From an uncultured Hyphomicrobiales bacterium (GTDB taxonomy: Bacteria > Bacteroidota > Ignavibacteria > Kapaibacteriales > UBA2268): a stretch of DNA of 64,000 nucleotides. The notes below the pieces were generated by a model. It was given only the letters and a program-made list of their open reading frames with translations, did not search any database and was not told where the DNA came from. Positions 2,337-34,854 of this stretch are shown piece by piece. The stretch is taken from assembly GCA_964610885.1 (NCBI GenBank), contig CAZSWR010000002.1, positions 23,811 to 87,810 of the forward strand, written 5' to 3'. The position numbers and the translations under genes were made by a program. Each line of letters starts with the position of its first letter. The first letter of the stretch is position 1.

Positions 2337-5300
2337 TGTTAGAGAAACTTATTTCGATGACTTTGTCGCGAAGAGGCATGATAATTTTCGTATCCTTGCT
2401 TATCGTTGCCTTCGGCGTTTATTCGGCAATGAACATCAACATTGATGCTTTCCCGGACGTAACAAACAACCAGGTCGAAATCGTTAGCCGTGCCGGAGGA
2501 CTCTCTGCAGTGGAAATCGAACGTAACGTTACGTATCCGATCGAGACTGCAATGAAAGGGTTGCCCGGAATTGTGCAGATGCGATCTGTTACGAAATTCG
2601 GTTTGTCGATCGTTACAATCGTTTTCAAAGAGAATGTAGATATTTATTTTGCCCGCCAACTCGTTTTCGAGAGATTGGACGAAGCCAAAGACAATCTTCC
2701 CAAAGGCGTTGAGGTCGAGATGGGGCCTATGGCCACAGTTATGGGCGAGATTTATCAGTACAATCTCGAAGGCACAATGCCCAAGGATTCAGCCGAAAAG
2801 GTTGCATATCTGACCAATCTTCGAACAATCCAGGAATGGATTATTACCCCTCAGCTGAAAAACGTACCGGGAGTGAATGAAATCAACTCATACGGCGGTT
2901 ATTTCAAACAATACCAAGTGGTTATCAGCCCCGAAAAGCTATTAAAATACAATGTAACGGTCAACGATATTTTTGAAGCACTCGAAAACAACAACCAAAA
3001 CGCCGGCGGAAATATTATCGAAAACGGATCGGATCAATATATTGTCAGGGGCGTTGGCCTTATAAAAGATACTATTGATATTTCGAATATCGTCCTGAAG
3101 GAAACCGGTGGCGTCCCCACTTTTATCGGCGATGTGGCTCAAGTTAGGATTGGCGAGGCAGTACGAATGGGAGCCGCTCTGAAAAATGGCGAAGAAACAG
3201 TTGGCGGCATTGTAATGATGTTGCGCGGCGAAAACAGCCGCAACGTTGTGCAGAGCGTCAAAGAGAATGTCAAGGAAATAAACAACAACAATATCCTGCC
3301 ACCGGGAATCAAAATTGTCCCGTATTACGACCGTACAGATATTGTTGACGATAGTGTCTATACAATTGTCCGGGCGCTACTCGAAGGTTCGGTGTTGGTA
3401 TTGGTAATCACTTTCATCCTTCTGAGGAGTTTTCGTGGATCGGCAGTTATTTTGATCGCGTTGCCGGTTTCACTTTTGCTGACGTTTATTATGATGAAAC
3501 TAACCGGAATCGGGGCTAATCTAATGTCGATCGGAGGTCTGGTCATTTCGACCGGCATGAAGTTCGATGCGTCGATTATCCAAGTGGAAAACGTGCAGCG
3601 ATTGCTCAACGATCATCCGGGAAAAACCGGACGATTCAAAACGGTTCTTAAAGCCATCATGGATGTTCGGAAGCCGAGTATCTATGGCGAAGTCATTATT
3701 GCAATTACTTTTATTCCAATTTTAGCCCTCGAAGGCACCGAAGGTAAGATGTTCGCTCCGCTTGCGATAACGGTTATTCTTGCAATTGCGGCTTCGCTGC
3801 TAATGTCGATATTCGTCATACCTCAATTGTGCGGTACTTTTCTAAAGCCCCAACAGGAAAAAGAAAGTCCCGTGATGCGATTCTTTTCGAAGCAATATTT
3901 GCCGTTATTAAAATTTGCGATCAAAAAGAAGTATCTTTTGTTGTCGATAGCCGGAATTGCTCTGGTAGGATCGCTTTTCCTGTTTGGCAAGCTCGGTACG
4001 GAATTCATTCCGATTATGGACGAGGGCGCTTTCGATATGGATATTTCGCTTTTGCCGGGAGTTTCGCTTGCAAAAGCTGTGGATATTAACAAAATGGCTG
4101 CCGACAAATTGAAAAACTTCAACGAGCTTGATGTGGCTGTTTGCCGAATCGGACAAACAGGAGTCGCTCTCGACACTCGCGGAGCCGATAAAACCGGTTA
4201 CGTCGGCGTGCTAAGGCCGAAGAACGAATGGAAGAGAGACATTTCGCGCGAAGAGCTGACTCAGGAGATGAGAGACTCGCTGAACCAAATTCCGGGCATA
4301 GCCTTCGGATTCAGTCAGCCTATTCAGTGCCGGATTGACGAAATCGTGGCCGGAACGCGAGCGCAATTAATCCTTAAACTTTTTGGCGACGACATAGAAA
4401 TTCTGAAGAAAAAATCTGAGGAAATAGCGAAAGTCCTTTCGGGAATAAAAGGCGCCACGGATTTAGTAACAGAAAAAATAACTGGTCAGCCATATTTAAC
4501 CATCACTATCGACAGGAAAAAAATATCGCGATACGGTTTGAATGTAGCGGATATCCAAAAAGTGATTGAAATGGCAATCGCCGGTAAGTCAGCTTCAAGC
4601 CTTTATGAAGGGAATAAAAGGTTCGATATCACTGTCCGTTTGCCCGAAGAAAAAAGGAATTCAGTTGATGCAATCAAGGATATCTTTGTCCCGTCAAAAT
4701 CAGGTGCAAACGTGCCGTTGGCACAACTTGCCGATATAAAAATGACAGAAGGCCCGGTTCAAATTAGCAGGCAAGATGGCGTTAGGCGCGTCGGAATCGA
4801 GATGAATATTTCGGGCAGAGATATGGGTGGCTTTGTTGCCGAAGCCAAACAGAAAATCGCCTCGAAAGTTAATTTGCCATCCGGTTATTATTTAACTTGG
4901 GGCGGCCAATTTGAAAATCAGCAAAGAGCCATGACGAAATTAATGATAATCGTACCAGTTGCAATTGGTTTGATTTTACTTTTGCTGTTTGTTACTTTCA
5001 AATCGATACGTTTGTCATTTCTTGTCATTCTGAATCTTCCATTCGCCTTGATAGGCGGTGTGCTGGCATTGTGGATTTCGGGACTGTATTTATCGGTTCC
5101 TGCATCTGTAGGATTCATTGTTTTGCTCGGAGTTGCTGTGCTGAATGGAGTCGTATTGGTTACTCACATATCTCATCTGCGCGATGAAGGTATGGATAAG
5201 GACTCGGCAATTATGCAAGGGAGCATCGACAGGCTGCGTCCGGTATTGATGACGGCTTTTATTACAATTTTTAGTTTGATTCCATCGTTGATAGCTACAG

Positions 5301-5437
5301 GGACCGGATCCGAAGTTCAGAAACCTTTGGCAACGGTTGTAGTGGGCGGACTAATTTCATCAACAATACTGACACTTCTCATTATTCCGGCTGTTTATGG
5401 TTGGTTCGAGAAGAGAAAAGAAGAAGCCGAAATGTAA
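2336..5437 (+). CDS. czcA: CzcA/CusA-family heavy-metal efflux RND pump
   Basis: 1033-aa polytopic RND protein. The N-terminus MLEKLISMTLSRRGMIIF...DAFPDVTNNQVEI is typical of HME-RND pumps. The track start at 2264 overlaps the adaptor gene and was not used. Confidence 0.9.
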   Translation: MLEKLISMTLSRRGMIIFVSLLIVAFGVYSAMNINIDAFPDVTNNQVEIVSRAGGLSAVEIERNVTYPIETAMKGLPGIVQMRSVTKFGLSIVTIVFKENVDIYFARQLVFERLDEAKDNLPKGVEVEMGPMATVMGEIYQYNLEGTMPKDSAEKVAYLTNLRTIQEWIITPQLKNVPGVNEINSYGGYFKQYQVVISPEKLLKYNVTVNDIFEALENNNQNAGGNIIENGSDQYIVRGVGLIKDTIDISNIVLKETGGVPTFIGDVAQVRIGEAVRMGAALKNGEETVGGIVMMLRGENSRNVVQSVKENVKEINNNNILPPGIKIVPYYDRTDIVDDSVYTIVRALLEGSVLVLVITFILLRSFRGSAVILIALPVSLLLTFIMMKLTGIGANLMSIGGLVISTGMKFDASIIQVENVQRLLNDHPGKTGRFKTVLKAIMDVRKPSIYGEVIIAITFIPILALEGTEGKMFAPLAITVILAIAASLLMSIFVIPQLCGTFLKPQQEKESPVMRFFSKQYLPLLKFAIKKKYLLLSIAGIALVGSLFLFGKLGTEFIPIMDEGAFDMDISLLPGVSLAKAVDINKMAADKLKNFNELDVAVCRIGQTGVALDTRGADKTGYVGVLRPKNEWKRDISREELTQEMRDSLNQIPGIAFGFSQPIQCRIDEIVAGTRAQLILKLFGDDIEILKKKSEEIAKVLSGIKGATDLVTEKITGQPYLTITIDRKKISRYGLNVADIQKVIEMAIAGKSASSLYEGNKRFDITVRLPEEKRNSVDAIKDIFVPSKSGANVPLAQLADIKMTEGPVQISRQDGVRRVGIEMNISGRDMGGFVAEAKQKIASKVNLPSGYYLTWGGQFENQQRAMTKLMIIVPVAIGLILLLLFVTFKSIRLSFLVILNLPFALIGGVLALWISGLYLSVPASVGFIVLLGVAVLNGVVLVTHISHLRDEGMDKDSAIMQGSIDRLRPVLMTAFITIFSLIPSLIATGTGSEVQKPLATVVVGGLISSTILTLLIIPAVYGWFEKRKEEAEM

Positions 5438-5445
5438 TATCATCA

Positions 5446-5477
5446 CTCCTGTTTGTCCGTTTGCGGACAAGCAGGAG
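5446..5477 (+). other. Strong intercistronic hairpin (14-bp stem, TTTG loop) between czcA and the P-II gene
   Basis: CTCCTGTTTGTCCG-TTTG-CGGACAAGCAGGAG has 13 Watson-Crick pairs plus one G.U. It starts 9 nt after the czcA stop and ends 25 nt before the ATG at 5502. No U-tract follows. Confidence 0.6.
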
Positions 5478-5501
5478 TGCTATCAAACGAAAGGTAATTA
5501 T

Positions 5502-5843
5502 ATGAAAGAGATAAAGGCGATCATCCGGCCGTTTAAATTATCGGAAGTTATTGATGAACTATCCGAAATTGAAGGCCTTCCGGGAGTTACAGTCTCCGAA
5601 ATCAAAAGCTTCGGAAAATCAAAAACATCAAATGCTAAAGACAAAGTCACATGCGAAGAAGTAGAGCTTATTCCAAGAATTAAACTCGAAGTAGTAGTTT
5701 TGGATTCTATGGTTGAAAGAGTAGTTGAAGCTATTCAGAAAATTGCACATACTGGAAACACCGGAGACGGCAAGATATTCATTACCGATGTCGAAGAAAC
5801 CATAAAGATCCAAACAAATGAAAGGGGCATTTCTGCAATTTAG
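5502..5843 (+). CDS. P-II (GlnB-like) family protein encoded at the end of the czc operon
   Basis: 113 aa. MKEIKAIIRPFKLSEVIDEL...GDGKIFITDVEETIKIQTNERG matches the P-II fold pattern. The T-loop region (SFGKSKTSNAKDKV) lacks the GlnB Tyr51 context. Confidence 0.75.
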   Translation: MKEIKAIIRPFKLSEVIDELSEIEGLPGVTVSEIKSFGKSKTSNAKDKVTCEEVELIPRIKLEVVVLDSMVERVVEAIQKIAHTGNTGDGKIFITDVEETIKIQTNERGISAI

Positions 5844-14842: not shown

Positions 14843-14915
14843 GGTCAGGTAGCTCAGTTGGTAGAGCAGTGGACTGAAAATCCACGTGTCGGCGGTTCAA
14901 ATCCGTCTCTGACCA
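14843..14915 (+). tRNA. tRNA-Phe (anticodon GAA)
   Basis: A cloverleaf can be read by eye. Acceptor GGTCAGG/TCTGACC, D-arm GCTCAGTTGGTAGAGC, anticodon stem-loop GTGGA-CTGAAAA-TCCAC, T-arm GGCGG-TTCAAAT-CCGTC. CCA is not encoded. Confidence 0.95.
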
Positions 14916-15517: not shown

Positions 15518-16084
15518 ATGATAGAATTTTGGAAATTATTTTCTGAGGAATTATTTAACAATCTTAATTTATTGAGGAATGGTTGGTTTTTAAGATATTA
15601 TGATAAGTCAAAATTTACTTATCATACAATAAATAGTATTATTCCATTTGTTGGAAAAAGATTAGGGCTTGAAATAGAATCTGAGTTAAGATTACCTGAT
15701 CATAGTAGAATAGATTTTGTATATGGTAGAAATATTCATAATCGTTTTCAAATTAATTTTGCAATTGAACATGAGAATGAATGGGATTCTTGGTATGAAG
15801 AATTACTAAAACTCTCAGAATTGAATTTGGATATAAAAAAAGTGCTAATATCATATTACCATTGGCGTGATGAAAATATTGATTGTGTAAAGCATAACAT
15901 ATTATATAATTGTAATCCCCAAAGACTTAATAAAGATTTCCTTTTTATATTTGGGCCAGGTGAGTTTCCCAAAAATGATCTTGGAAAAAAAAGTGTAAAA
16001 GATCAAGATTACAAAGCATTTGTATTTAATGGAACTAAATTTGAAGATTTAGAAGATATTCCAATATTAAGAAATCTTAAATAG
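15518..16084 (+). CDS. Hypothetical protein with a possible restriction-endonuclease-like core (islet gene 1)
   Basis: 188-aa ORF with strongly AT-rich codon usage. The segment HSRIDFVY...(16 aa)...FAIEHENE resembles the D...E-x-(K/E) strands of the PD-(D/E)XK fold. The family was not recognised. Confidence 0.4.
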   Translation: MIEFWKLFSEELFNNLNLLRNGWFLRYYDKSKFTYHTINSIIPFVGKRLGLEIESELRLPDHSRIDFVYGRNIHNRFQINFAIEHENEWDSWYEELLKLSELNLDIKKVLISYYHWRDENIDCVKHNILYNCNPQRLNKDFLFIFGPGEFPKNDLGKKSVKDQDYKAFVFNGTKFEDLEDIPILRNLK

Positions 16085-16194: not shown

Positions 16195-17388
16195 ATGGAA
16201 AAGTTAAAACTGTTGGAAGAATATTCAAAAATATCAAATGAACTAAAAGAGAACATGCTATACAATCTTTCTAAATCTTCGAAAGAACTCTTTCATAGCG
16301 ATTTTATATGCTGGCTTATAAACAAATATCCAACGGCTTTGAGGAGGATGTTTGAGAGAGTATTGGACAAAGAATTGAAAGATTTTTCAATTTGCCAAAG
16401 AGAAAAAGATAGGTTGGATCTTTCCATTTGTGGCATCAATAATGATCCTAATTTCAATCCCAATTCCAATATGCTTTTAGTTATTGAAAATAAAGTCAAG
16501 AGTTATCCATATAAAAATCAATTAATTAAATATAACAAGACATTAGAAAAAGAATTAAATGTAGAAAAAATTCTTCTGACATTATTTAACCCGACACAAA
16601 AAGATAGTATTGAAGGTTGGACTGTCGTCGAATACAAAACACTATTTAACAAAAACAATTGCAAGGAATTATTAGAATCGGCTACTCAGAATGACCAATA
16701 TATTATCAATCAATATTTGGATTTTTGGAACAATATGCAATTGATTATTAAATATGTAAATATGAATGATTCTTTTGCTTTGTTCGACAGGGATAATAAA
16801 ATATTTACTACACTAAATGATATTGGCCTGGGTTACAACTATATAAAAATATGTTACTTGGATTTAAGTTTTAAAGTATTTGAATCTTTGAAAAAATCCT
16901 CGGATGTTACTTCTGCAATTCTTACAGAATCATGGTTGGTCGAGAAAGGTGCGTTCAATGTCTCTTCTTGGTTCACCAATAGAAGCAATCAACCATTAGT
17001 TGATATAAACTATTGCATTGAGAATAAATCAAAAAGTCGTGGGTTTGGTGTTCAATTACAAGAAAGAGGTTTTAAATTATATTCAAACACTTCACAAGGA
17101 CAAATCGAATTGCCACTAAATGTATTAAAAGAGCTGTTGAAAACAATTCAAGAAAACAATAGTGATCTATTTGATGAAACAGTGAGAAACATCGGACAAA
17201 GAGAATCTTCTAAATCAAACAACACCTACAAGTATGTAAAGTTAAATCTTCGATCTGACATTACCGTAGAGCAAGTTACGAACCTTATGGTGTCTTCAAT
17301 GCTGCTATTATACAATGACTACATAGCTAATAATTATAAACGCGAAAAAATACAACCAATAATTGGCAAAATTTCTACTGATAATTAG
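16195..17388 (+). CDS. PD-(D/E)XK nuclease superfamily protein (islet gene 2)
   Basis: 397 aa. The N-terminal pattern ELFHSDFICWL...RLDLSI...LLVIENKVKS...QLIKY (H, D, ExK, QxxxY) is typical of PDDEXK-type orphan nucleases. The C-terminal ~230 aa are unassigned. Confidence 0.6.
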   Translation: MEKLKLLEEYSKISNELKENMLYNLSKSSKELFHSDFICWLINKYPTALRRMFERVLDKELKDFSICQREKDRLDLSICGINNDPNFNPNSNMLLVIENKVKSYPYKNQLIKYNKTLEKELNVEKILLTLFNPTQKDSIEGWTVVEYKTLFNKNNCKELLESATQNDQYIINQYLDFWNNMQLIIKYVNMNDSFALFDRDNKIFTTLNDIGLGYNYIKICYLDLSFKVFESLKKSSDVTSAILTESWLVEKGAFNVSSWFTNRSNQPLVDINYCIENKSKSRGFGVQLQERGFKLYSNTSQGQIELPLNVLKELLKTIQENNSDLFDETVRNIGQRESSKSNNTYKYVKLNLRSDITVEQVTNLMVSSMLLLYNDYIANNYKREKIQPIIGKISTDN

Positions 17389-25263: not shown

Positions 25264-25959
25264 TCAGTTTTCGGGATCATCAGAAAACAGGTATCCCACG
25301 CCGGAAACTGTTTTAATATACTTAGGTTTGCCGGGTTCGGATTCAATTTTTTTCCTCAGTTGGCCCAGGAAGACTCGCAAATACTGAGTTTCATCGGCAA
25401 ATGGGCTTCCCCAGATGCTTTCGAGTATCTGCTTGTGGGTCAGTACTTTGCCAATATTGTTGAATAGTAATTTGAATATTGCATACTCTGTTGATGTCAG
25501 TTGTATGATTCTTCCGTTTTTCTTTAGCACTCTCGACGATAGATTCAGTTCAAACTCGCCGTAGGTTTTGACTGACGATTCGCTGACACTGTCTTTGTGC
25601 CTAAGTGCCACGCGAATCCTGGCCATTAGTTCACCGGAATGAAATGGCTTGGTAATATAATCGTCGGCGCCTGAATCGAGAAGTTTGATCTTATCCATTT
25701 CTGTGCTTCTAACTGAAAGAATGATGATCGGCGCAGAACACCATTCTTTTATTTCATTTAATACTTCAATTCCTTCCATGTCGGGCAAATTGAGGTCGAG
25801 AAGCACTAATTCAGGTATATGCGAGGCTGCCAACAATAATCCTGATTTGCCTGTATCGGCAATTATGACTTCGAAATCATTAGCCTCTAAAGTCAGTTTC
25901 AGCAGCCTACAGATCTGTGGTTCGTCGTCAATGACTAATATTTTAGTTTTGTTGCTCAT
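25264..25959 (-). CDS. kdpE: KdpE response regulator (OmpR family)
   Basis: Receiver domain (ILVIDDEP...LVLLDLNLPDM) plus a winged-helix output (IKTVSGVGYLF). Its start overlaps the kdpD 3' end by 17 nt. Confidence 0.9.
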   Translation of the reverse strand: MSNKTKILVIDDEPQICRLLKLTLEANDFEVIIADTGKSGLLLAASHIPELVLLDLNLPDMEGIEVLNEIKEWCSAPIIILSVRSTEMDKIKLLDSGADDYITKPFHSGELMARIRVALRHKDSVSESSVKTYGEFELNLSSRVLKKNGRIIQLTSTEYAIFKLLFNNIGKVLTHKQILESIWGSPFADETQYLRVFLGQLRKKIESEPGKPKYIKTVSGVGYLFSDDPEN

Positions 25960-28576
25960 ACAATGGTAAAAGTATTTCGAAAATTAAGCCTGAAGGGATG
26001 TTGCTTCTGACGGAGATTTGACCCTTGTGAGCTTCGATGAAGCCCTTTGCTATGGACAATCCCAGGCCGCAACCGCCCCGTTTCGAACCAAGCGGCCTAT
26101 AAAACTTCTCGAACAATCTTGGCAATTCATTCGAGTTCAATCCATGTCCGTTGTCACGGATTGAAATCATTAATTTGCCGGGAGCGTTTTCTGTTGTTAT
26201 CGAAATCGAACTTCCTTCGGGCGTATAGGTTAATTCATTTAGGATAATATTGAATAATGCCTGCGTCATCAAGCCATAGTCGGCGTTGATTGTATCGATT
26301 TCCGCTCGGAATTCGGTCGAAATTGAATAGCCGGCCGATTTGTCCCGGAGCTGGTTCAACACTTCGAGAATTAGTTCCTGTGCGCTGTATGGTTCGGTGT
26401 TCAATTGAAGCTTGCCCGATTCCAACCTTGAAATATCAAGCAGATTCTCGACCAGCAGGTTCAACCTGTTCGAGGCAACGAACATCTCGTTCGCAAATTT
26501 TTTGACTAATTCCGAATTCTGAGCAATGTTATTATCCAATATACTCGTCGACGAACCGGTAATAACGGCAATTGGCGTGCGGAATTCATGCGAGATGGAA
26601 TCGATCAATGTGTTGTACAACCTGCTGGTTTCTTGGTCGATGGAAATCTGTTTGAGCTGCTCTTCGGCCTCTTCCTTTTCGTAGAAACTCGTTAATTGTT
26701 CGAGGAAATTCACAATTAAGTTCTCTTCTTCAATCAGCAATTTTTTCTCCAGAATGAGGCAGAACAAACCAATTATTGACTTCTTTGAGTTCACGGGAAA
26801 GTACTGCGCAATCGCATCGGGAAGGTTGTTGGTGAATTTGCCGGCGATTCTGTTGTTGTCCAAGGCCCACCTGCCGATAGCTAATTCTTTGTTGTCGAAA
26901 TGAATTGAATCGCTTGAAGATTTTATCTGCTCCATATTCCTGTCGAAAAAAACAACATTCGAGGAAGTGTGCTTATAGATGTGCTTGATCGTAACATCGA
27001 TTGCTTCGGCCTTGTTGGAGCAAGACGACAAATCCTTCGTAAAGCCCAGTAAAGCCAGGGAGGTCTTCTCTCTGGCCAGTACCAATAATCGCTGTTTTTT
27101 CACCCTTGAAACAAGCAATCCCGAAGTCAGGGCAATTCCAAAATTCAATAAAAGAGTGAGTACGTCATGGAGTTGGCCTATTTCAAAGGTGAACAAAGGC
27201 GGGATAAAGAAGAAATTCCAAATTAGTGAGTTCAATATTGCTGCGAAAATAATCGCTCTCCTGCCCGCATAGAATGGGATCAGCATAAGATTGAGCAGCT
27301 GGATTAATCCCACAGATTGGTAGCCCAAATAATTCGTGAAGGGATAGCACAAGATTGAGACAGTCAAGACCGATGCCAAAGGGAATACATAGTCTTTTGC
27401 TGATGTTGCTTGTTCCTTTCTGGATTGATGCTTAACTTTTTTCGAATCGACCTGTTCGGGGCGAATGATGTAAATATCGATATTTCCGCTCTCGGAAATC
27501 AGCCGATCCAAATAATTATCTCTTTTTAAGTAATTGAGTATGCTGTACTTCGTAGGTTTCCCGATGATTATCTGGCTGATGTTGTTCTTCAGGGCAAATA
27601 CAAGAAGTCCATCGACGAGGTCTGTATTGGCAGTTGTGATAACTTCTGCACCCAATTCTTTGGCCAATCGGAGATTCTTCTCGAGTTGTTCGATTTGCAA
27701 GTCGGTCTCTTTTATGTCCGTTTTAACATAAACAGCATACCATTTTGTCTTCAGGGCATAAGCCATTCTGCGTGTCCATTTGATCAACTCAATCGAGAAT
27801 GGGCTGGAGCCAACAGCGACCATGAGCTTGTCGGCGGCTTTCCAAGGTCCTGTTATGTTTTTCTCGCTCATGTAGTTAACCAAATCGCTATCAACCTTTT
27901 CGGCTGTGAGTCGCAAAGCCATTTCCCTTAGCGAAATCAGGTTCCCGGCCTTGAAGAAGTTATTGGAGGCCAGCTGAGCTTTGTCGGCTACGTAAACCTT
28001 GCCGTCAGACAGCCTTTGCAGCAATTCCTCGATGGGCAAATCAATCAACTCGATGTTTTCGGCAATCTCTATGATTGAATCCGGTACGGTTTCTTTGATG
28101 TTGATTCCCGTAATTTGCTCAACAGTTTTGCTTCGGCTTTCGATATGCTGCACGTTAATCGTCGTTAGGACGTGGATACCATGCTCCATCAATTCGAGCA
28201 CATCCTGGTACCTTTTCGAGTGCTTCGACCCCGGTATATTGGAGTGCGCAAGCTCGTCCACCAACACGAAATCCGGTTTTAGTTCGACAGTTTTCTCCAA
28301 GTCGAATTCTTCGGCAACCATTCCTTTGTAATTAATCTTTTTCCTCGGAATGATTTCAAATCCTGTCAGCAACTTTTCGGTCTCGGAACGGCCGTGAGTC
28401 TCGACGTAGCCGATTGCCACTCGATACCCCGCGTCCATCAGTTCCTTCGCGTGGAGCAGCATTGAGTAGGTTTTGCCAACGCCGGCGCACATCCCAAAGA
28501 AGATTTTCAAGTTGCCATTTTTCTTCTTGGTTTCTGTAGCATTGATTCTGGCCAATATTTCGTCTGGAGTGGTCAT
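25943..28576 (-). CDS. kdpD: KdpD sensor histidine kinase
   Basis: 877 aa. N-terminal KdpD domain with P-loop FFGMCAGVGKTYSML, a Usp-like region, four hydrophobic helices, H-box SHEFRTPI and an HATPase domain. Confidence 0.95.
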   Translation of the reverse strand: MTTPDEILARINATETKKKNGNLKIFFGMCAGVGKTYSMLLHAKELMDAGYRVAIGYVETHGRSETEKLLTGFEIIPRKKINYKGMVAEEFDLEKTVELKPDFVLVDELAHSNIPGSKHSKRYQDVLELMEHGIHVLTTINVQHIESRSKTVEQITGINIKETVPDSIIEIAENIELIDLPIEELLQRLSDGKVYVADKAQLASNNFFKAGNLISLREMALRLTAEKVDSDLVNYMSEKNITGPWKAADKLMVAVGSSPFSIELIKWTRRMAYALKTKWYAVYVKTDIKETDLQIEQLEKNLRLAKELGAEVITTANTDLVDGLLVFALKNNISQIIIGKPTKYSILNYLKRDNYLDRLISESGNIDIYIIRPEQVDSKKVKHQSRKEQATSAKDYVFPLASVLTVSILCYPFTNYLGYQSVGLIQLLNLMLIPFYAGRRAIIFAAILNSLIWNFFFIPPLFTFEIGQLHDVLTLLLNFGIALTSGLLVSRVKKQRLLVLAREKTSLALLGFTKDLSSCSNKAEAIDVTIKHIYKHTSSNVVFFDRNMEQIKSSSDSIHFDNKELAIGRWALDNNRIAGKFTNNLPDAIAQYFPVNSKKSIIGLFCLILEKKLLIEEENLIVNFLEQLTSFYEKEEAEEQLKQISIDQETSRLYNTLIDSISHEFRTPIAVITGSSTSILDNNIAQNSELVKKFANEMFVASNRLNLLVENLLDISRLESGKLQLNTEPYSAQELILEVLNQLRDKSAGYSISTEFRAEIDTINADYGLMTQALFNIILNELTYTPEGSSISITTENAPGKLMISIRDNGHGLNSNELPRLFEKFYRPLGSKRGGCGLGLSIAKGFIEAHKGQISVRSNIPSGLIFEILLPLYEQQN

Positions 28577-29148
28577 TTCGCAAATTCAATGAGTTTGATA
28601 TTCAGTTCCAACACGTTCACTTTCGGTTCTCCGAAGATACGAAGGCTCCTGTCCTCAATAGACGAATTAACCAATGTTTTTAAGTTTTGTTTCTGAAATT
28701 CGTTGAAATGCCTTCTTTCGGAGATCCGATCGACTTGGAACAGGGCCGCTTCCGGGGAGATGTGCGGATCCACGCCGCTACCGGACGCAAAGAGCAGATC
28801 CTTTGGCACATCGTTGATATTCACTGCCGCGTGATACATCTTGAGTGTGTCGATCCTTGCCGCAATGGCTTCCTTCATTCTTGTTCCAATCGGATTTAAA
28901 TTGCTTCCGCCAGACGGCATCGGCTCCGAAGATACTGCCGAAGGCCGACCCCAGAAGAATTCAGGGCCGGAGAATCGTTGCCCCAACAACTCGCTCCCAA
29001 TTATACAGCCATCACGAGTAATCAAAGAGCCATTGGTTTTCTCGTTGAAGCAAACTATTCCAAATAAATAGATTGACAATGGATAGATAATACCCACTAT
29101 CAAAGTCAATAGAAGGAACAGTTTGGCCGCTATTATTATATTCTTCAT
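28573..29148 (-). CDS. kdpC: Potassium-transporting ATPase subunit KdpC
   Basis: 191 aa. Single N-terminal TM helix. Contains GGSNLNP and ASGSGVDPHISPEAA, which are KdpC signatures. Overlaps kdpD by 4 nt. Confidence 0.9.
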   Translation of the reverse strand: MKNIIIAAKLFLLLTLIVGIIYPLSIYLFGIVCFNEKTNGSLITRDGCIIGSELLGQRFSGPEFFWGRPSAVSSEPMPSGGSNLNPIGTRMKEAIAARIDTLKMYHAAVNINDVPKDLLFASGSGVDPHISPEAALFQVDRISERRHFNEFQKQNLKTLVNSSIEDRSLRIFGEPKVNVLELNIKLIEFAK

Positions 29149-29159
29149 TTCTGCCTCCT

Positions 29160-29642
29160 TTATTTGTCCAGCCTGTCCAAGATGGTGTTTTCAAAGACGC
29201 CTTTGGACGCTTCAACAATCTCGATTTCGTTGTCAAATGAAAACTTACCTCTTGGTATTTCTTGATTGCATTTCAAGAAAAACTTAGTATTAATAATGAC
29301 TCTACACTCTTCATTGCTCATTGGAACGATTTGAATCTTCGTCGTATCAAAAAATCGGGACAATGTCGTTATGTGATTGTACTCTTGAGTGCTGACAAGT
29401 GTTTTTAGCTTCTCGAGCGACAAGTCTCCCGCGGCTGTTATCAATCCGGCATTCTGGTCCGAATCGACGACTGTATGGCCAATGTCGGAGAGTATTGTCG
29501 GTAAATCATTCCAAACGGATGACTTACTCTTATTAATAATTCGATAGTTCTTCGAGAAATTCGAGTATTCATCGTGTTCGTTCCTGCTGCAAGACAGGAA
29601 CAGAATACTCAGAATAATGCCGTATTTAATTAACTTTTTCAT
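29160..29642 (-). CDS. Hypothetical lipoprotein encoded between kdpB and kdpC
   Basis: 160 aa. Signal MKKLIKYGIILSILFLSCS. No recognisable family. Packed tightly (7 nt after kdpB, 11 nt before kdpC) on the operon strand. Confidence 0.5.
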   Translation of the reverse strand: MKKLIKYGIILSILFLSCSRNEHDEYSNFSKNYRIINKSKSSVWNDLPTILSDIGHTVVDSDQNAGLITAAGDLSLEKLKTLVSTQEYNHITTLSRFFDTTKIQIVPMSNEECRVIINTKFFLKCNQEIPRGKFSFDNEIEIVEASKGVFENTILDRLDK

Positions 29643-29649
29643 GACAATC

Positions 29650-31752
29650 TCATATTAAATGTAGAACTTCAATTAGTGTATCAATTGCTTTTATACCGAG
29701 GAAAGGCACCAATACGCCACCCACTCCGTAAATGAAAATATTCCGCCTCAGAATCGAAGATGCGCTTCTCGGTTCATATTTGACGCCCTTCAGCGCAAGT
29801 GGAATCAATGCTACGATTATGAGTGCGTTAAAAATTATCGAACTCAAAACGGCGCTCTCGGGGCTGGCCAGGTGCATAATGTTCAATTTCGACAGCGCTC
29901 CCGTACCATTAATGACATACAGAGAACCGAATATCGCGGGCAGAATTGCAAAATACTTCGCTACGTCGTTTGCAATGCTGAACGTCGTCAGCGCTCCGCG
30001 TGTCATTAGTAATTGCTTGCCAATTTCGACCACGTCAATTAGTTTCGTCGGGTTGGAATCGAGATCCACCATGTTCCCTGCTTCGCGCGCGGCTTGGGTT
30101 CCCGAGTTCATGGCAACGCCAACGTCGGCTTGCGCGAGGGCCGGAGCGTCGTTAGTGCCATCGCCAATCATGGCAACAAGTTTGCCTTCGGCCTGCTCGT
30201 GGCGGATTCTGTTTAATTTATCCTCGGGCGTCGCCTCGGCAATAAAATCATCAACACCGGCCTCGGCAGCGATGGAAACTGCCGTCAAGGGGTTGTCTCC
30301 GGTGATCATTACCGTCTTGATGCCCATTTTTCTCAGCTTCTCGAAGCGCTCCTTGATCCCTCCTTTGACGACATCTTTCAGCCTGATCACGCCCAAGATT
30401 TTGTCGCCCTCGCACACGACGAGCGGTGTGGAACCTTCGGAGGCAACGTCCTCGACAATTTTATCTATTTCCGTCGGGCACTCGCCACCGATTTCGCAGA
30501 CGTAGCTTTTGATTGATTCGGCTGCTCCTTTCCGTATCCGAATCTCTTTGCCTCCTTTTTTGATATCGACTCCGCTCATCTTGGTTTGGGCGGTGAAAGG
30601 GATAAACGTGAGCGACGAATCCTCGATTTGTTTGCCCCTCAGGTTGAATTCCTTCTTGGCAAGGACCAGGATTGAGCGCCCCTCGGGTGTGTCGTCCGAA
30701 AGCGAAGACAATTGCGCCCGCTCGGCAAGGTAGTTCACATCGACCCCTTTGACTGGAATGAACTCCGAAGCCATTCTGTTGCCCAACGTGATGGTGCCGG
30801 TTTTGTCGAGCAACAAGACGTCCACGTCGCCAGCGGCTTCGACGGCTTTTCCGCTCTTCGCGATAATGTTGCGTTTCGTCAGGCGGTCGATTCCGCTTAT
30901 GCCGATAGCGTTCAATAGTCCGCTGATAGTCGTGGGGATCAGGCAAACGATAAGCGAAATCAGAATCGGCAGGCTCAATCGCGATTCAGTTTGGCCCGAT
31001 GCGTTCATTGCATATAGCTCGAATGGCTTCAGCGTGAAGACTGCGATCAGGAAAATTATCGTCATCCCGCTCAAAAGAATTGTCAAAGCGATTTCGTTAG
31101 GCGTCTTTTGGCGTTTGGCGCCTTCGACGAGCGCGATCATTTTGTCGAGGAAAGTATCGCCGGGCATCGACGTGATCTGTATGATAATTCTGTCGCTTAT
31201 CACTTTGGTCCCGCCGGTAACGGCCGAGCGGTCGCCGCCACTTTCGCGGATGACCGGTGCGGATTCGCCTGTGATTGCCGATTCATCCACGCTGGCAATG
31301 CCGTCCACAATATCGCCATCGCCCGGGATGGTGTCCCCGGCCTCGCACACGACGAGGTCGCCAGTTTTCAGTTCTGACGAGAGGATTTTCTGTTCGGCGA
31401 TTCCTTCAAACGCTGCAACGCCCTTTGTCATATTGGGATTAGAGATTTTCCGCGCGTATGTATTCGTCCTCATTTTGCGCAGTGTGTCGGCTTGGGCTTT
31501 GCCGCGGCCCTCGGCGATCGCCTCCGAAAAGTTAGCGAAGAGAACCGTGAACCACAGCCAGAGCGATATTTGCAGATTGAATCCCGACCAATCCACGGCT
31601 GTTATAACTGTCGTGATCACGGCTCCAATAAAGACGATGAACATAATCGGGTTTTTGATTTGCTTTGCCGGACTCATTTTTCGGAAAGAATCGCCCACGG
31701 CGGCTGAAATCAGCTTTTTATCGAATGTTTTTGTTTGATTTTTCATTTTCAT
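29650..31752 (-). CDS. kdpB: Potassium-transporting P-type ATPase subunit KdpB
   Basis: P-type motifs [17 protein letters not shown] and [16 protein letters not shown]. The start is ATG 31752 or 31746, preceded by GGAAGA. The track start at 31782 adds 10 unlikely residues. Confidence 0.95.
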
Positions 31753-31870
31753 TCTTCCTGTCGTTACACACTCACGCTGCAAACTTATCCGAATTGATAT
31801 ATGTATGAAATATGGACATGGCCGGGATTTATAAAGATTTTGTAAAGAAGAGAGAACGGAAATGTCAGAC

Positions 31871-31898
31871 GTAGGGGTTCAAAATTTTGAACCCCTAC
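31871..31898. repeat. REP palindrome GTAGGGGTTCAAAATTTTGAACCCCTAC (AT-core variant)
   Basis: Perfect 28-bp palindrome 104 bp upstream of the RAYT ATG. It is preceded by GTCAGAC, as is the copy at 32742. Confidence 0.9.
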
Positions 31899-32152
31899 AG
31901 ATAAATATATCCCCACACCCCTACTTTTTGACCCCATACTTCTCATAATAAAATAATCAATAAAGAATCCCGTGTCCTATATAAAAACAACAGACTTAAG
32001 CAATGAAATACAACCCCGACACGCACCATCGCAAATCAATCCGTCTGAAGGAATTTGATTATTCGCAGGCCGGATATTATTTTATCACTATTTGCACGCA
32101 TAACCGAGAGCATTTGTTCGGGGATATTAATGAAATCATGGTTCAGAATAAT

Positions 32153-32179
32153 GTAGGGGTTCAAAATTTTGAACCCCAC
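32153..32179. repeat. REP palindrome embedded in frame inside the RAYT ORF (translated [10 protein letters not shown])
   Basis: GTAGGGGTTCAAAATTTTGAACCCCAC lies within the coding sequence. Confidence 0.85.
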
Positions 32180-32329
32180 CAAAAACAAATGAAATTGGAT
32201 GCCGGTGGTAAAATTGTTGAAAAATGTATTGAGGATATCCCTGCTCATTTTCCATTAGCCGAGATCGATCATTATTGCATTATGCCCAACCATCTGCATT
32301 TGATAATAATTATTAACGGACAAATAAAT

Positions 32330-32369
32330 GTAGGGGTTCAAAATGGGGTTCAATATTTTGAACCCCTAC
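32330..32369. repeat. Composite REP inside the RAYT ORF (translated VGVQNGVQYFEPLH)
   Basis: GTAGGGGTTCAAAA-TGGGGTTCAATATTTTGAACCCCTAC has a duplicated left half-site. It lies just after the HUH motif. Confidence 0.8.
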
Positions 32370-32618
32370 ATATTGAACCCGAGAAAAACCAATTTCAAAA
32401 GATAATTCCTTATTCATTAGGATCGATTATTAAAGGATTGAAAAATAGGCGTAACAAAATGGTTTAAAGAGAATACATCAATATATCACGTTTGGCAACG
32501 AAATTATTACGAACACATAATTCGCAATGAGAAAGAATTGTTTGAAATAAGAAAGTATATTGAACTGAATCCTATGAATTGGAACAAAGATGAGTATTTC
32601 GAATAATACAAATATTAA

Positions 32619-32643
32619 CCTGTAGGGGCAATGCCCCTACAGG
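32619..32643. repeat. REP palindrome CCTGTAGGGGCAATGCCCCTACAGG (short-core variant)
   Basis: Perfect palindrome 13 bp downstream of the RAYT stop. Confidence 0.9.
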
Positions 32644-32681
32644 TAGATCTAAACAAAAAGGCGTGTCACATTTTATACATT

Positions 32682-32739
32682 CCTCTCACCCCAACCACTC
32701 CACAACAGGCCCCAAACAAAGAGCGGGCAGAAACGTCAG
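32682..32739 (-). repeat. 58-bp duplicate of the kdpA 3' end (copy of 32808-32865, 1 mismatch)
   Basis: The reverse complement encodes LTFLPALCLGPVVEWLG-stop, like the true kdpA terminus. The single difference (CCT vs CCG) is synonymous. The duplication period is 126 bp. Confidence 0.9.
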
Positions 32740-32741
32740 AC

Positions 32742-32768
32742 GTAGGGGTTCAAAATTTTGAACCCCAA
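32742..32768. repeat. REP palindrome GTAGGGGTTCAAAATTTTGAACCCCAAC
   Basis: Lies between the two copies of the kdpA 3' end and is preceded by GTCAGAC. Confidence 0.85.
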
Positions 32769-32811
32769 CAGACAAATGAACCCCAACAAAAAACAATACA
32801 AACGATACCTC

Positions 32812-34476
32812 TCACCCCAACCACTCCACAACCGGCCCCAAACAAAGAGCGGGCAGAAACGTCAGTGCGCCGACGATGAGTATCACGCCGATCAGGAGGA
32901 ATGCAAATAGCGAAGTGTCCGTGCGGAAGGTGCCTTGCGATACCGGCGTCGTCTTCTTCTCCGAGAGCGATCCGGCAATCACCAACACGGGAATAATCAC
33001 CGCAAACCGACCAACCAGCATGCCAAGCCCGAGCATTATGTTGTAGAAATCCGTGTTCGCGTTCAGCCCGGCAAAGGCCGAACCGTTGTTGCCCGCGGCG
33101 GACGCAAAGGCGTAGAGCACCTCCGAGAACCCGTGCGCGCCGCTCTCGGCAATGCTGCCCAGCCCCTCCGGCACCGACAAAGCAATCGCCGAAAACCCGA
33201 GTATCACAAAACTCGGCGCAATTACGGCGAGCATAGCCATCTGAATTTCCTTCGCCTGAATTTTCTTGCCCAAGTATTCGGGAGTGCGCCCGATCATCAG
33301 CCCGGCAATGAATACGGTCAGCAGGACGAAAATCAACATGCCGTACATTCCTGCGCCCACGCCGCCGAAGACAATTTCGCCCAACATGATGTTGAACATT
33401 GCCACCAAACCGGAGCCGGGCATTAGCGATTCGTGCATGGCATTGACCGAGCCGCTCGAGGCCGCCGTCGTGAAGGTGGACCACATCACGGAATTAGTTA
33501 TCCCGAATCGAGTTTCCTTCCCTTCCAAATTGCCCGCAATCCCAAGCGACGGGTTCATCGAAAACTCCGAATACAGAGAAACCGAAAGCCCGATGGCCAG
33601 CAGCAGCAGCATCACCGCAAACAAAGTCCAGCCTTGGCGCGCGGAGCCGACAATCTTGCCGAATGTAAACGTCAGGGCGGCGGGAATGAGCAAAATGGAG
33701 AGCATCTGCAACAGATTGCTAATCGGTGTGGGGTTCTCGAATGGGAAAGCAGAATTGGCATTAAAGAATCCACCGCCGTTCGTGCCGAGCTGCTTGATGG
33801 CGATTTGCGACGCTGCCGGCCCGCCGGGGATCGTTTGCTTGATGCCTTCGAGCGTGCTGGCATCGGTATAGGCGTTAAAGTTCTGAATCACGCCCTGGGA
33901 CACCAACAGAATGGCCAAAAGGGCACTCAGGGGCAGCAGCACGTAAAGAGTTGACCGGGTTACATCGACCCAGAAATTGCCCAATTCGGAGGATTGTTTG
34001 TTTCTGATGCCTCTCGCCAGGGCTATAAAAACCGCGATACCGGTCGCCGCGCTCAGGAAATTCTGAACTGTCAGCCCGGCCATTTGCACGAAGTACGACA
34101 TGGTTGTTTCGCCGGCGTAGGATTGCCAGTTAGTATTCGTCATAAAACTAACTGCCGTATTGAAGGCCAGCGATGGATCGGCGCCGGGGAGTTGTTGCGG
34201 GTTCAGCGGCAAGTACTGCTGGCAGACTTGCAAAAGGAAGACAGCAACGAAACCGAAGGCATTGAAGGCCAGAAGCGAGAAAAGGTAGCTCTTCCAATTC
34301 ATCTGACTGTGGTCGTCGATCCCGAGCAGTTTGTAGAGTTTCAGCTCGAACGTTTTTAGCCATCTGTTGTTAATATCTTTATATAGAACTTGGTAGATAT
34401 ACGTGCCAAGCGGTTTAACTGTAAGTATCAATATTGCCAGCATGGCAACAACTTGGATTATATCGTAAATATTCAT
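32812..34476 (-). CDS. kdpA: Potassium-transporting ATPase subunit KdpA
   Basis: 554-aa polytopic protein with a typical KdpA N-terminus and selectivity-filter-like segments (NTNWQSYAGE, GTNGGGFF). AAGGAGGA lies 6-13 nt upstream of the ATG. Confidence 0.95.
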   Translation of the reverse strand: MNIYDIIQVVAMLAILILTVKPLGTYIYQVLYKDINNRWLKTFELKLYKLLGIDDHSQMNWKSYLFSLLAFNAFGFVAVFLLQVCQQYLPLNPQQLPGADPSLAFNTAVSFMTNTNWQSYAGETTMSYFVQMAGLTVQNFLSAATGIAVFIALARGIRNKQSSELGNFWVDVTRSTLYVLLPLSALLAILLVSQGVIQNFNAYTDASTLEGIKQTIPGGPAASQIAIKQLGTNGGGFFNANSAFPFENPTPISNLLQMLSILLIPAALTFTFGKIVGSARQGWTLFAVMLLLLAIGLSVSLYSEFSMNPSLGIAGNLEGKETRFGITNSVMWSTFTTAASSGSVNAMHESLMPGSGLVAMFNIMLGEIVFGGVGAGMYGMLIFVLLTVFIAGLMIGRTPEYLGKKIQAKEIQMAMLAVIAPSFVILGFSAIALSVPEGLGSIAESGAHGFSEVLYAFASAAGNNGSAFAGLNANTDFYNIMLGLGMLVGRFAVIIPVLVIAGSLSEKKTTPVSQGTFRTDTSLFAFLLIGVILIVGALTFLPALCLGPVVEWLG

Positions 34477-34854
34477 TTCAGAATCCTCCTTATAAATTTC
34501 ACTGGATTGTCTCAGCAGAAGGCCAATGATACATACGGAGTAAATATCATTTCAATTTGCCAAACAACTAATGCAAATCTATTGTTTCCGGCATAAGTAT
34601 GAAATTCTGAAAGATGGGTAAAATATAAAGAATTCATAAAGACAGGTTGGCAGCGGTAGGTGGTGCTTGAATTGTTATGCTATTCATGCAGAAGTAGTAT
34701 GAACCTGTTGATAAAGCACAAGACTTGCAACAACTGGTTTTAATCCAATGCAAGAATCGTAGTAAATCATTGATATATCGACAAATCCCTCATCTCGATA
34801 TGCCAAATGGGGCAAAAGAAATTTGAAATAATCCCAAAAAGTTCGTTAGAAAAA

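Follow-up and report, generated by a model that had tools for sequence, protein, structure and literature searches.

A degenerate REPtron between kdpA and kdpB: probably the occupant, not the cause, of a divided kdp operon

This study concerns the junction between kdpA and kdpB in a 64,000-nt stretch of bacterial DNA from contig CAZSWR010000002.1 (called the window below). More than 1 kb separates the two pump genes, and the gap holds a cassette, at about 31861-32804, which its predicted protein and its palindromes identify as a degenerate REPtron of TnpA_REP subclass 2.4, an ordinary and previously described kind of element. The original prediction, made from the same DNA, regarded this cassette as the cause of the separation. 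Comparison with relatives does not bear this out, as three of them have divided genes without any RAYT (REP-associated tyrosine transposase) gene. In our estimation, with a probability of roughly 75%, the REPtron is not what broke up a compact kdpFABC operon; kdpA and kdpB would already have been separate units in the lineage, with a copied KdpE promoter in front of kdpB.

Promoter duplication most likely divided the operon at an earlier time, because kdpB is likewise not adjacent to kdpA in the three relatives (L161-L163) and because a paralogue of the kdpA promoter stands before kdpB in the window, L162 and L163. This conclusion is drawn from comparative sequence evidence from three distant relatives.

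The kdpA-kdpB gap

The gap is bounded by two intact genes:

32812-34476, minus strand: kdpA, 554 aa, with a short C-terminus ending in ...VVEWLG*; Pfam KdpA at 5e-238 over the full profile; the C-terminus of L161 is the same
29650-31746, minus strand: kdpB, P-type ATPase subunit, intact; residues 1-700 align with relatives

Two start codons can be considered for kdpB (31752 and 31746), of which the ATG at 31746 is the orthologous one (MKNQTKTFD, compared with MKKETKTFD in the relative L001). Measured from the kdpA stop (32812), the gap is 1,059-1,065 nt long, the larger value applying to the ATG at 31746, in agreement with the ~1.06 kb given in the original prediction. In 79 related loci, retrieved with KdpA as query, the kdpA-kdpB spacer has a median of 14 nt and does not exceed 110 nt in 77. 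The gap is real and far beyond the usual range, and at 1,065 nt the two genes of the window cannot be called adjacent.

The GC content of the gap is 0.36 and that of the cassette 0.34-0.36, as against 0.52-0.54 for kdpA and kdpB. The RAYT open reading frame (ORF) within it has a GC content of 0.34, and of 0.36 at third codon positions (GC3), where host genes have 0.47 and ~0.57. The cassette is compositionally foreign. An Rfam search of the gap region gave no matches.

The junction in relatives

A KdpA search of 5.8 billion proteins returned no relative above 80% identity. The closest ones are 76-80% identical, L161 being at 80%, and the nearest named relatives are metagenome-assembled genomes (MAGs) of Bacteroidota and Kapabacteria. 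In L162, kdpA is followed by antisense genes of 196 and 342 aa and kdpB lies 2.3 kb downstream. In L163, an antisense 682-aa gene follows kdpA and kdpB lies 2.8 kb downstream. L161, whose KdpA also ends in ...VEWLG*, has no kdpB in the 237 nt between kdpA and the end of the contig, and the contig of L166 stops at the kdpA stop codon. Hence, among the 554-aa KdpA forms with a known downstream context (L161-L163), kdpB is adjacent in none of three. The occupants of these slots are unrelated to each other and to RAYT, no RAYT gene and no double-foot REP (repetitive extragenic palindrome) was found in the inserts of L161-L163, and the GC content of each slot is below that of its kdp genes. In contrast to the 554-aa forms, relatives with a KdpA of 555-558 aa (L001, L002, L005, L164, L167) have a compact kdpA-kdpB arrangement. 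These gaps in the closest relatives, with different contents in L162 and L163, are established.

The comparison of orthologous kdp loci had been proposed in the original prediction, which named one outcome as telling against it, namely that a long spacer with an antisense gene is the ancestral arrangement of the lineage. The wider set of relatives is compact as that prediction assumed, but the relatives sharing the 554-aa KdpA are split without RAYT, which is largely the outcome it had named. Literature searches yielded no report of a split kdpA/kdpB pair or of an internal kdpB promoter.

Other additions to this junction were seen in further relatives. Two Candidatus Kapaibacterium MAGs, L037 (7768-8821) and L064 (7759-8785), have a cassette of two same-strand genes at this place, encoding proteins of ~175 and 183 aa. 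The second L037 gene weakly matches RiboL-PSP-HEPN (6.9e-5), its L064 counterpart has no Pfam match, and the cassette may be a toxin-antitoxin or defence pair. The otherwise compact kdpA-kdpB spacers of L027 (7666-7774) and L068 (7660-7772) hold strong palindromic hairpins (-26.3 and -23.5 kcal/mol), so that the kdpA-kdpB junction also receives small hairpin elements.

Predicted twin KdpE promoters

The promoter elements considered here are all predicted sites:

34624-34640, minus strand: predicted KdpE box of the kdpA promoter, TTTATG AATTC TTTATA
34574-34581, minus strand: predicted -7 box of the kdpA promoter (TAGATTTG), backed by TAnnTTTG enrichment
31830-31846, minus strand: predicted KdpE box of the kdpB promoter, TTTACA AAATC TTTATA; kept upstream of kdpB in L162 and L163
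31780-31810, minus strand: predicted kdpB core promoter, TTTC (31810-31807), N19, TAAGTTTG (31787-31780); 34 nt before the ATG

The pattern TTTAYR-N5-TTTAYR occurs at exactly two sites in the 64 kb, one upstream of kdpA and one upstream of kdpB, both on the kdp strand (expected 0.17). Both read as KdpE direct-repeat boxes, since the E. coli KdpE half-sites are TTTATA-N5-TTTACA (Narayanan et al. 2012, PMC3264566). An extended KdpE box is present upstream of kdpA in many relatives. For kdpB of the window, the box would span positions -73 to -57, approximately, relative to the predicted start, judged by the box-to-core spacing. The likeness to the E. coli kdpFABC promoter extends to the half-site sequence, the 5-bp spacer, a similar distance to the predicted core and the presence of kdpDE in the locus (PMC3264566). 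Unlike E. coli, the window has two regulatory copies, before kdpA and before kdpB; it also differs by a Bacteroidota-type core (TAnnTTTG), a kdpF remnant and an extra lipoprotein gene between kdpB and kdpC.

Some 100 nt upstream of kdpB are conserved across the window, L162 and L163, and the predicted core is kept as TAATTTTG in the latter two. Between the window and L162, the kdpB region is 67% identical over 253 nt, including 103 nt upstream of the gene (E=3e-15). Within each genome, the regions upstream of kdpA and kdpB are paralogous; the relationship is clear in L162 (z=25.5) and L163 (z=17.1) but weaker in the window (z=3.1). That these two regions are conserved and paralogous is established; KdpE binding, promoter activity and separate transcripts are inferred. 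The original prediction had placed the cassette within a single transcription unit, a view which is not supported, given the conserved paralogue of the kdpA promoter region directly before kdpB. It had also foreseen uncoupled subunit expression, REP-mediated mRNA processing or an internal promoter for kdpB-X-C-D-E, and of these three consequences it is the internal promoter which gains comparative support.

By pairwise identity, the kdpA-upstream copies are closer to one another than to the kdpB-upstream copies, and the kdpB-upstream copy of the window is nearest to that of L162. These values suggest that the promoter was duplicated before the window, L162 and L163 diverged. The kdpB-upstream copies further share kdpB-specific bases, TATAT[CT][AT]AT.

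TAnnTTTG is the -7 element of Bacteroidetes promoters. In the window it is enriched in the zones upstream of genes on the sense strand, where 10 of 50 matches fall in 2.6% of positions (p=6e-7). Taken as zones of at most 150 nt upstream of genes, tRNA included, the enrichment is ~4- to 8-fold, which fits a host with Bacteroidota-type promoters. A sigma-70 promoter scan gave no excess over shuffled sequences (6 vs 4.1±2.1) and was left unused for kdpB.

The RAYT gene

The gene and the palindromes of the cassette are as follows:

31871-31898, unstranded: upstream REP, perfect 28-nt palindrome, 105 nt ahead of the RAYT ATG; -20.6 kcal/mol
32003-32606, plus strand: RAYT/TnpA_REP gene, frameshifted; part 1 at 32003-32467 (154 aa), part 2 at 32448-32606 (52 aa)
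32153-32180, plus strand: in-frame REP in the N-terminal part of the RAYT coding sequence (VGVQNFEPH), found in some homologues only
32330-32369, plus strand: in-frame REP that separates the HUH motif from the Tyr motif and has a 12-nt duplication inside it (VGVQNGVQYFEPL); REPs at this place are found throughout subclass 2.4 (PMC6006769)
32618-32644, unstranded: short-loop double-foot REP (ACCTGTAGGGGCA-A-TGCCCCTACAGGT); -23.4 kcal/mol
32740-32804, unstranded: 65-nt REP unit, with the palindrome 32742-32769 (GTAGGGGTTCAAAATTTTGAACCCCAAC, 1 mismatch) and a tail with half-REP fragments; -16 kcal/mol

The anatomy of the cassette, its family membership and its frameshift are established. The RAYT gene is antisense to the kdp genes and convergent with kdpA. 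The original prediction of a RAYT-type HUH/Y1 gene on the opposite strand is upheld by the motifs, a profile match and RayT homologues. The gene is not intact. The frame is broken by one extra A in an A5 run at 32441-32445 (GGATTGAAAAATAGG), where homologues encode G-[FL]-K-I-G. Whereas homologues of the fused protein have a single uninterrupted frame, the window copy yields a 200-aa product only when both pieces are joined. The copy is, as predicted from this one-base insertion, inactivated.

The fused protein matches NCBIfam REP_Tyr_transpos NF047646 at 7e-14 with 51.9 bits, under the curated cut-off of 80, and Pfam Y1_Tnp weakly, with 19-21 bits, under the threshold of 23. The family was assigned despite these sub-threshold scores because of the E-value and because homologues are named RayT. 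More than 7,000 database proteins match the fused protein and several bear this name. The best 120 of them are 173-253 aa long and match over 96-100% in one frame, the one exception being the source contig's own 154-aa ORF. Identity to full-length homologues is 50-59%, 59% being the top protein match. The HUH motif (HLHLII, in MPNHLHLII) and the catalytic tyrosine (QRNYYEH, in WQRNYYEH) are both intact, and both fall in invariant columns of an alignment with 23 homologues from several phyla. The only PDB match is 4ER8, E. coli TnpA_REP, with both motifs aligned. The DNA of the cassette has no match in plasmid or phage collections.

The REP hairpins and the class of the element

The palindromes share the form GTAGGGGTTCAAAATTTTGAACCCCTAC at 31871, 32153, 32330-32369 and 32742, with a short-loop variant at 32618-32644. 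Those first located at 31871, 32619 and 32742 were recovered at 31871-31898, 32618-32644 and 32742-32769, together with two more inside the ORF, and the expectation of at least five stable hairpins held: read on the kdp strand, each of the five folds into an RNA hairpin, with -15 to -24 kcal/mol and z from -3.2 to -6.6. No further GTAGGGG…CCCCTAC palindrome occurs in the 64 kb, where shuffled sequences also lead one to expect 0.

The REP at 32644-32618, read on the kdp (minus) strand, is terminator-like with its tail TAATATTTGT and looks like an intrinsic terminator for kdpA. The REPs just downstream of kdpA probably act as a 3' hairpin or terminator of the kdpA transcript. In E. coli, REPs are partial terminators and 3' stabilisers of the upstream mRNA (bioRxiv 10.64898/2026.03.23.713779), and stable GTAG-footed hairpins right after the stop of a gene are common to the window and to E. 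coli REP/BIME elements such as the yjdMN REP325 (bioRxiv 10.64898/2026.03.23.713779). In contrast to these, the window hairpins accompany a transposase gene, the downstream gene is apparently self-promoted, and an effect on kdpA mRNA is inferred.

Subclass 2.4 was described as abundant in Bacteroidetes and Cyanobacteria by Quentin, Siguier, Chandler and Fichant (2018, PMC6006769). It is marked by 'double foot' REPs and, uniquely, by in-frame REPs within the gene between HuH and Y, and the gene and its cognate REPs together are termed a REPtron (PMC6006769). The cassette shows both marks, with double-foot REPs with a GT[AG]G foot at 31871-31898, 32618-32644 and 32742-32769, and the REP at 32330-32369 between HuH and Y. 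It shares with subclass 2.4 the Y1 HUH/Tyr protein and flanking cognate REPs, in which a 5' GT[AG]G foot is paired with its 3' complement. It differs in that the window copy is frameshifted, has an extra in-frame REP in the N-terminal part, is not accompanied by dispersed REP copies in the 64 kb and occupies a slot of low GC and foreign appearance, even though REPtrons reportedly do not move as a unit.

The in-frame hairpin is a property of the family. The same peptide (VGVQNFEP...) follows the HUH motif in the aligned homologues. Among 80 homologous RAYT loci retrieved from metagenomes, at least 68 have a hairpin of the GTAGGGG..CCCCTAC type ~250-320 nt into the coding sequence. These hairpins have 30 different inner stems, all fully self-complementary, i.e. 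with compensatory stem changes. The same hairpin stands within 7-180 nt of the gene ends in ~45 of the 80, and copies lie kilobases off in some loci (L097, L100, L143, L148, L149). The in-frame palindromes were dropped as a new discovery, being already published for subclass 2.4 (PMC6006769).

With IS200/IS605 elements the cassette shares a Y1 HUH transposase and hairpins near the ends of the unit. It differs from them as the protein falls in the RAYT clade and the hairpins are perfect REP-type palindromes, one of them inside the gene. The mobility expected of such an element was not seen: the window holds a single copy, and no near-identical copy was found (best 59% at the amino acid level; plasmid and phage DNA searched).

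Genomic settings of RAYT and REP units

The original prediction expected REP/RAYT units between operons, not within one encoding a fixed-stoichiometry complex. For this family the expectation is off, given homologues within type I restriction-modification operons and between ABC half-transporter genes, and REPs inside E. coli operons, where they are well documented (bioRxiv 10.64898/2026.03.23.713779). According to Di Nocera (2013, PMC3733652), REPs typically follow ORFs and lie between genes that are convergent or unidirectional. In the 30 homologous RAYT loci with enough flank, the RAYT gene is co-directional with both neighbours in 19 and antisense between co-directional genes in two. By Pfam, the restriction-modification cases are hsdM, RAYT, hsdS (L085), hsdS, RAYT, hsdR (L091, L100) and Abi_C, RAYT, hsdR (L104). 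A RAYT gene lies between two ABC half-transporter genes in L101, and an antisense one lies between two pilin-like genes in L138. RAYT genes of subclass 2.4 are commonly located between cistrons of multi-subunit systems (type I restriction-modification systems, ABC pairs). One was also found between a TIR gene and a methylase gene (among L085, L091, L100, L104, L148, L101, L138 and L143).

Proposed history of the locus

We propose that an earlier event would have copied a kdp promoter region of ~95 nt, comprising the KdpE direct-repeat box and a Bacteroidota-type -33/-7 core, ahead of kdpB. As this region would have been copied before kdpB, kdpA and kdpB-X-C-D-E are each predicted to be switched on by KdpE. 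The stretch from the 3' end of kdpA to the KdpE box of kdpB would be a variable slot, which genomes would fill with different foreign antisense genes. The occupant in the window would be the REPtron, its REPs ending up just downstream of kdpA. The cassette would then lie between two predicted KdpE-controlled units and convergent with kdpA, which would make this a typical REP location (PMC3733652).

Competing explanations

The opposite history, in which the REP/RAYT cassette transposed into a compact kdpFABC and split it, kdpB being expressed by 1-kb read-through or from a promoter made by the insertion, would agree with the compact arrangement in 77 of 79 more distant relatives, with the foreign composition and with a terminator-like REP that faces the kdp direction. 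We hold it to be improbable, since three relatives with a 554-aa KdpA are already split without any RAYT, and since the kdpB promoter region, which is conserved in both L162 and L163, is not part of the REP-bounded cassette. Nor do we give much credence to convergence, by which the junction would have been struck independently in each genome and the promoter copied each time, with no single ancestral split. The higher mutual likeness of the kdpA-upstream copies, the affinity of the window's kdpB-upstream region to that of L162, the shared TATAT[CT][AT]AT bases and the same 554-aa truncation of KdpA in all split loci speak against it, while a neighbour-joining tree that sets L162 and L163 beside a compact relative, the different same-strand two-gene insert at the same junction in L037 and L064, and the 76% identity between the two promoter copies within L162, similar to between-genome values, speak for it. 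An assembly chimera misplacing the 31.8-32.8 kb segment, for which low GC, repeats and the MAG source might be quoted, is extremely unlikely: both junctions run into the expected kdp neighbours in the right order and orientation, the kdpB promoter block beside the cassette is conserved in independent assemblies, and the duplicated kdpA end differs at two positions, as real copies would.

The state of the RAYT gene is a separate matter. That the gene is functional, the frameshift being a homopolymer sequencing error and the REPtron being active and maintaining its REPs, is a minor though distinct possibility. Its sole defect is the extra A in the A5 run, the catalytic motifs are preserved, the REPs on either side are perfect or nearly so, and the copies of a 61-nt duplication at the end of kdpA, 97% identical, suggest recent REP-associated activity. 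Against this stand the lack of REP copies elsewhere in the 64 kb, and the 12-nt duplication in the hairpin of the coding sequence and the low scores against hidden Markov models, both compatible with decay.

Several points weigh against an early split followed by arrival of a degenerate REPtron. The simple neighbour-joining tree of KdpA groups L162 and L163 with the compact L164, not with the window; because the split genomes are not monophyletic in this tree, it is not proven that the presumed split arose only once. With the nearest KdpA relatives just 76-80% identical, the time of arrival of the REPtron cannot be bracketed, and a REPtron-free slot was not seen in any near-identical genome. 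For the two-unit proposal, KdpE binding and promoter activity are sequence-based predictions, and the similarity between the kdpA-upstream and kdpB-upstream regions of the window is modest (53%). The RAYT frameshift sits in a homopolymer and could be a sequencing error. Finally, the 64 kb have no REP copy beyond the cassette and so do not demonstrate a dispersed REP family for this genome.

Duplication of the kdpA 3' end

The 3' end of kdpA is present in two copies, arranged as a direct duplication of 61 nt:

32805-32865, minus strand: A2, the functional kdpA 3' end including the stop codon
32679-32739, minus strand: A1, a non-coding second copy; 59 of 61 positions identical, a score reached by 0 of 2000 shuffles

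A1 and A2 flank the 65-nt REP unit with the palindrome at 32742. By eye, the sequence after A1 is loosely like the native downstream flank of L161. A stretch at 31848-31870 was considered as a third, decayed copy (18 of 23 positions in register) and rejected: it overlaps lineage-conserved sequence by the KdpE box of kdpB (CATTTC...TCTTTA in L162 and L163), and a free local alignment with the kdpA end is not significant (136 of 2000 shuffles).

Long repeats were met at two other RAYT loci. In L125, 121-nt repeats (4764-4884 and 5629-5749) flank the RAYT gene and include the 3' end of the convergent gene; upstream of this RAYT gene lie a C-terminal hsdS fragment (..LDALLPSILDRAFKGEL*) and a fragment with the RAYT HUH motif. 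L130 has a ~295-nt tandem duplication inside the RAYT gene (5389-5517 and 5684-5812), with a copy of the REP pair. Long non-REP direct repeats were rejected as a general flank of RAYT/REP units, being seen only in L125, L130 and the window. A 1,067-nt metagenome contig with one RAYT gene only (L083, FWPV01219460.1) has 90-nt terminal direct repeats (2-91 and 978-1067, 99% identical), which are the signature of a ~977-nt circle or tandem array; L083 is possibly an excised REPtron.

A bolder and doubtful idea joins these threads. The split kdp locus with its twin KdpE promoters would be a stable landing pad which repeatedly captures foreign antisense genes and, as a linked part, insertion of subclass 2.4 REPs or REPtrons would bring direct target duplications of 60-130 nt. 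Such long target duplications, if real, would regenerate the 3' end of the neighbouring gene, and a similar long-duplication event could have made the promoter copy that split the operon. Since Y1/IS200-type transposition is not known to duplicate its target, another insertion route would then be implied, perhaps one associated with the replication fork. REPs were reportedly recognised by Shyamala et al. in 1990 as join points of tandem duplications.

Other features of the kdp locus and of the window

All kdp genes lie on the minus strand, and kdpA, kdpB, kdpC, kdpD and kdpE are each present and intact by full-length Pfam matches. Those beyond kdpB are:

29160-29642, minus strand: ORF-X, 160 aa, lipoprotein-like, between kdpB and kdpC
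28573-29148, minus strand: kdpC (Pfam)
25943-28576, minus strand: kdpD (Pfam)
25264-25959, minus strand: kdpE (Pfam)

ORF-X has a signal peptide (...LSILFLSC), a GC content of 0.39 and spacers of 7 and 11 nt to kdpB and kdpC. It has no counterpart in 80 related kdp loci, and a search of the metagenome collection gave no relatives. In L163 this position is taken by a lipoprotein-like ORF of 159 aa, with 24% identity, which is not significant. Extra same-strand ORFs between kdpB and kdpC were also found in loci of the FCB group, namely L058 (9644-11005), L076 (4034-5473), L062 (6868-8151) and L064 (11067-12491). Those of L058 and L076 encode similar proteins of 453-479 aa with signal-peptide-like N-termini, possibly outer-membrane proteins. 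The L062 insert comprises a lipoprotein-like ORF followed by a 244-aa ORF, and that of L064 a hydrophobic 185-aa ORF followed by a 284-aa ORF resembling a short-chain dehydrogenase.

At the kdpF position (34512-34550, minus strand), the window has only a 12-codon ORF (MIFTPYVSLAFC*), while L162 and L163 encode a typical 26-aa KdpF (MFALFGILALIILVYLFYSLIRPEKF). The kdpF of the window seems lost or decayed, reduced to a remnant.

Elsewhere in the window, two adjacent plus-strand ORFs (15518-16084 and 16195-17388) have GC contents of 0.25 and 0.30 and GC3 values of 0.15 and 0.29, against a window GC of 0.46. Both are probably of foreign origin; the tRNA gene at 14843-14915 is their neighbour.

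Significance

The interest of the locus lies in its context. A pump whose subunits are jointly needed is divided into two units in one lineage, apparently via duplication of a KdpE-dependent promoter instead of co-transcription, and the slot between the units would later have been filled by different foreign genes. If transcript mapping shows this to be true, the locus would offer a clear case from nature in which an operon was split without losing co-regulation. It would also show that a large intercistronic gap need not be a disruptive insertion.

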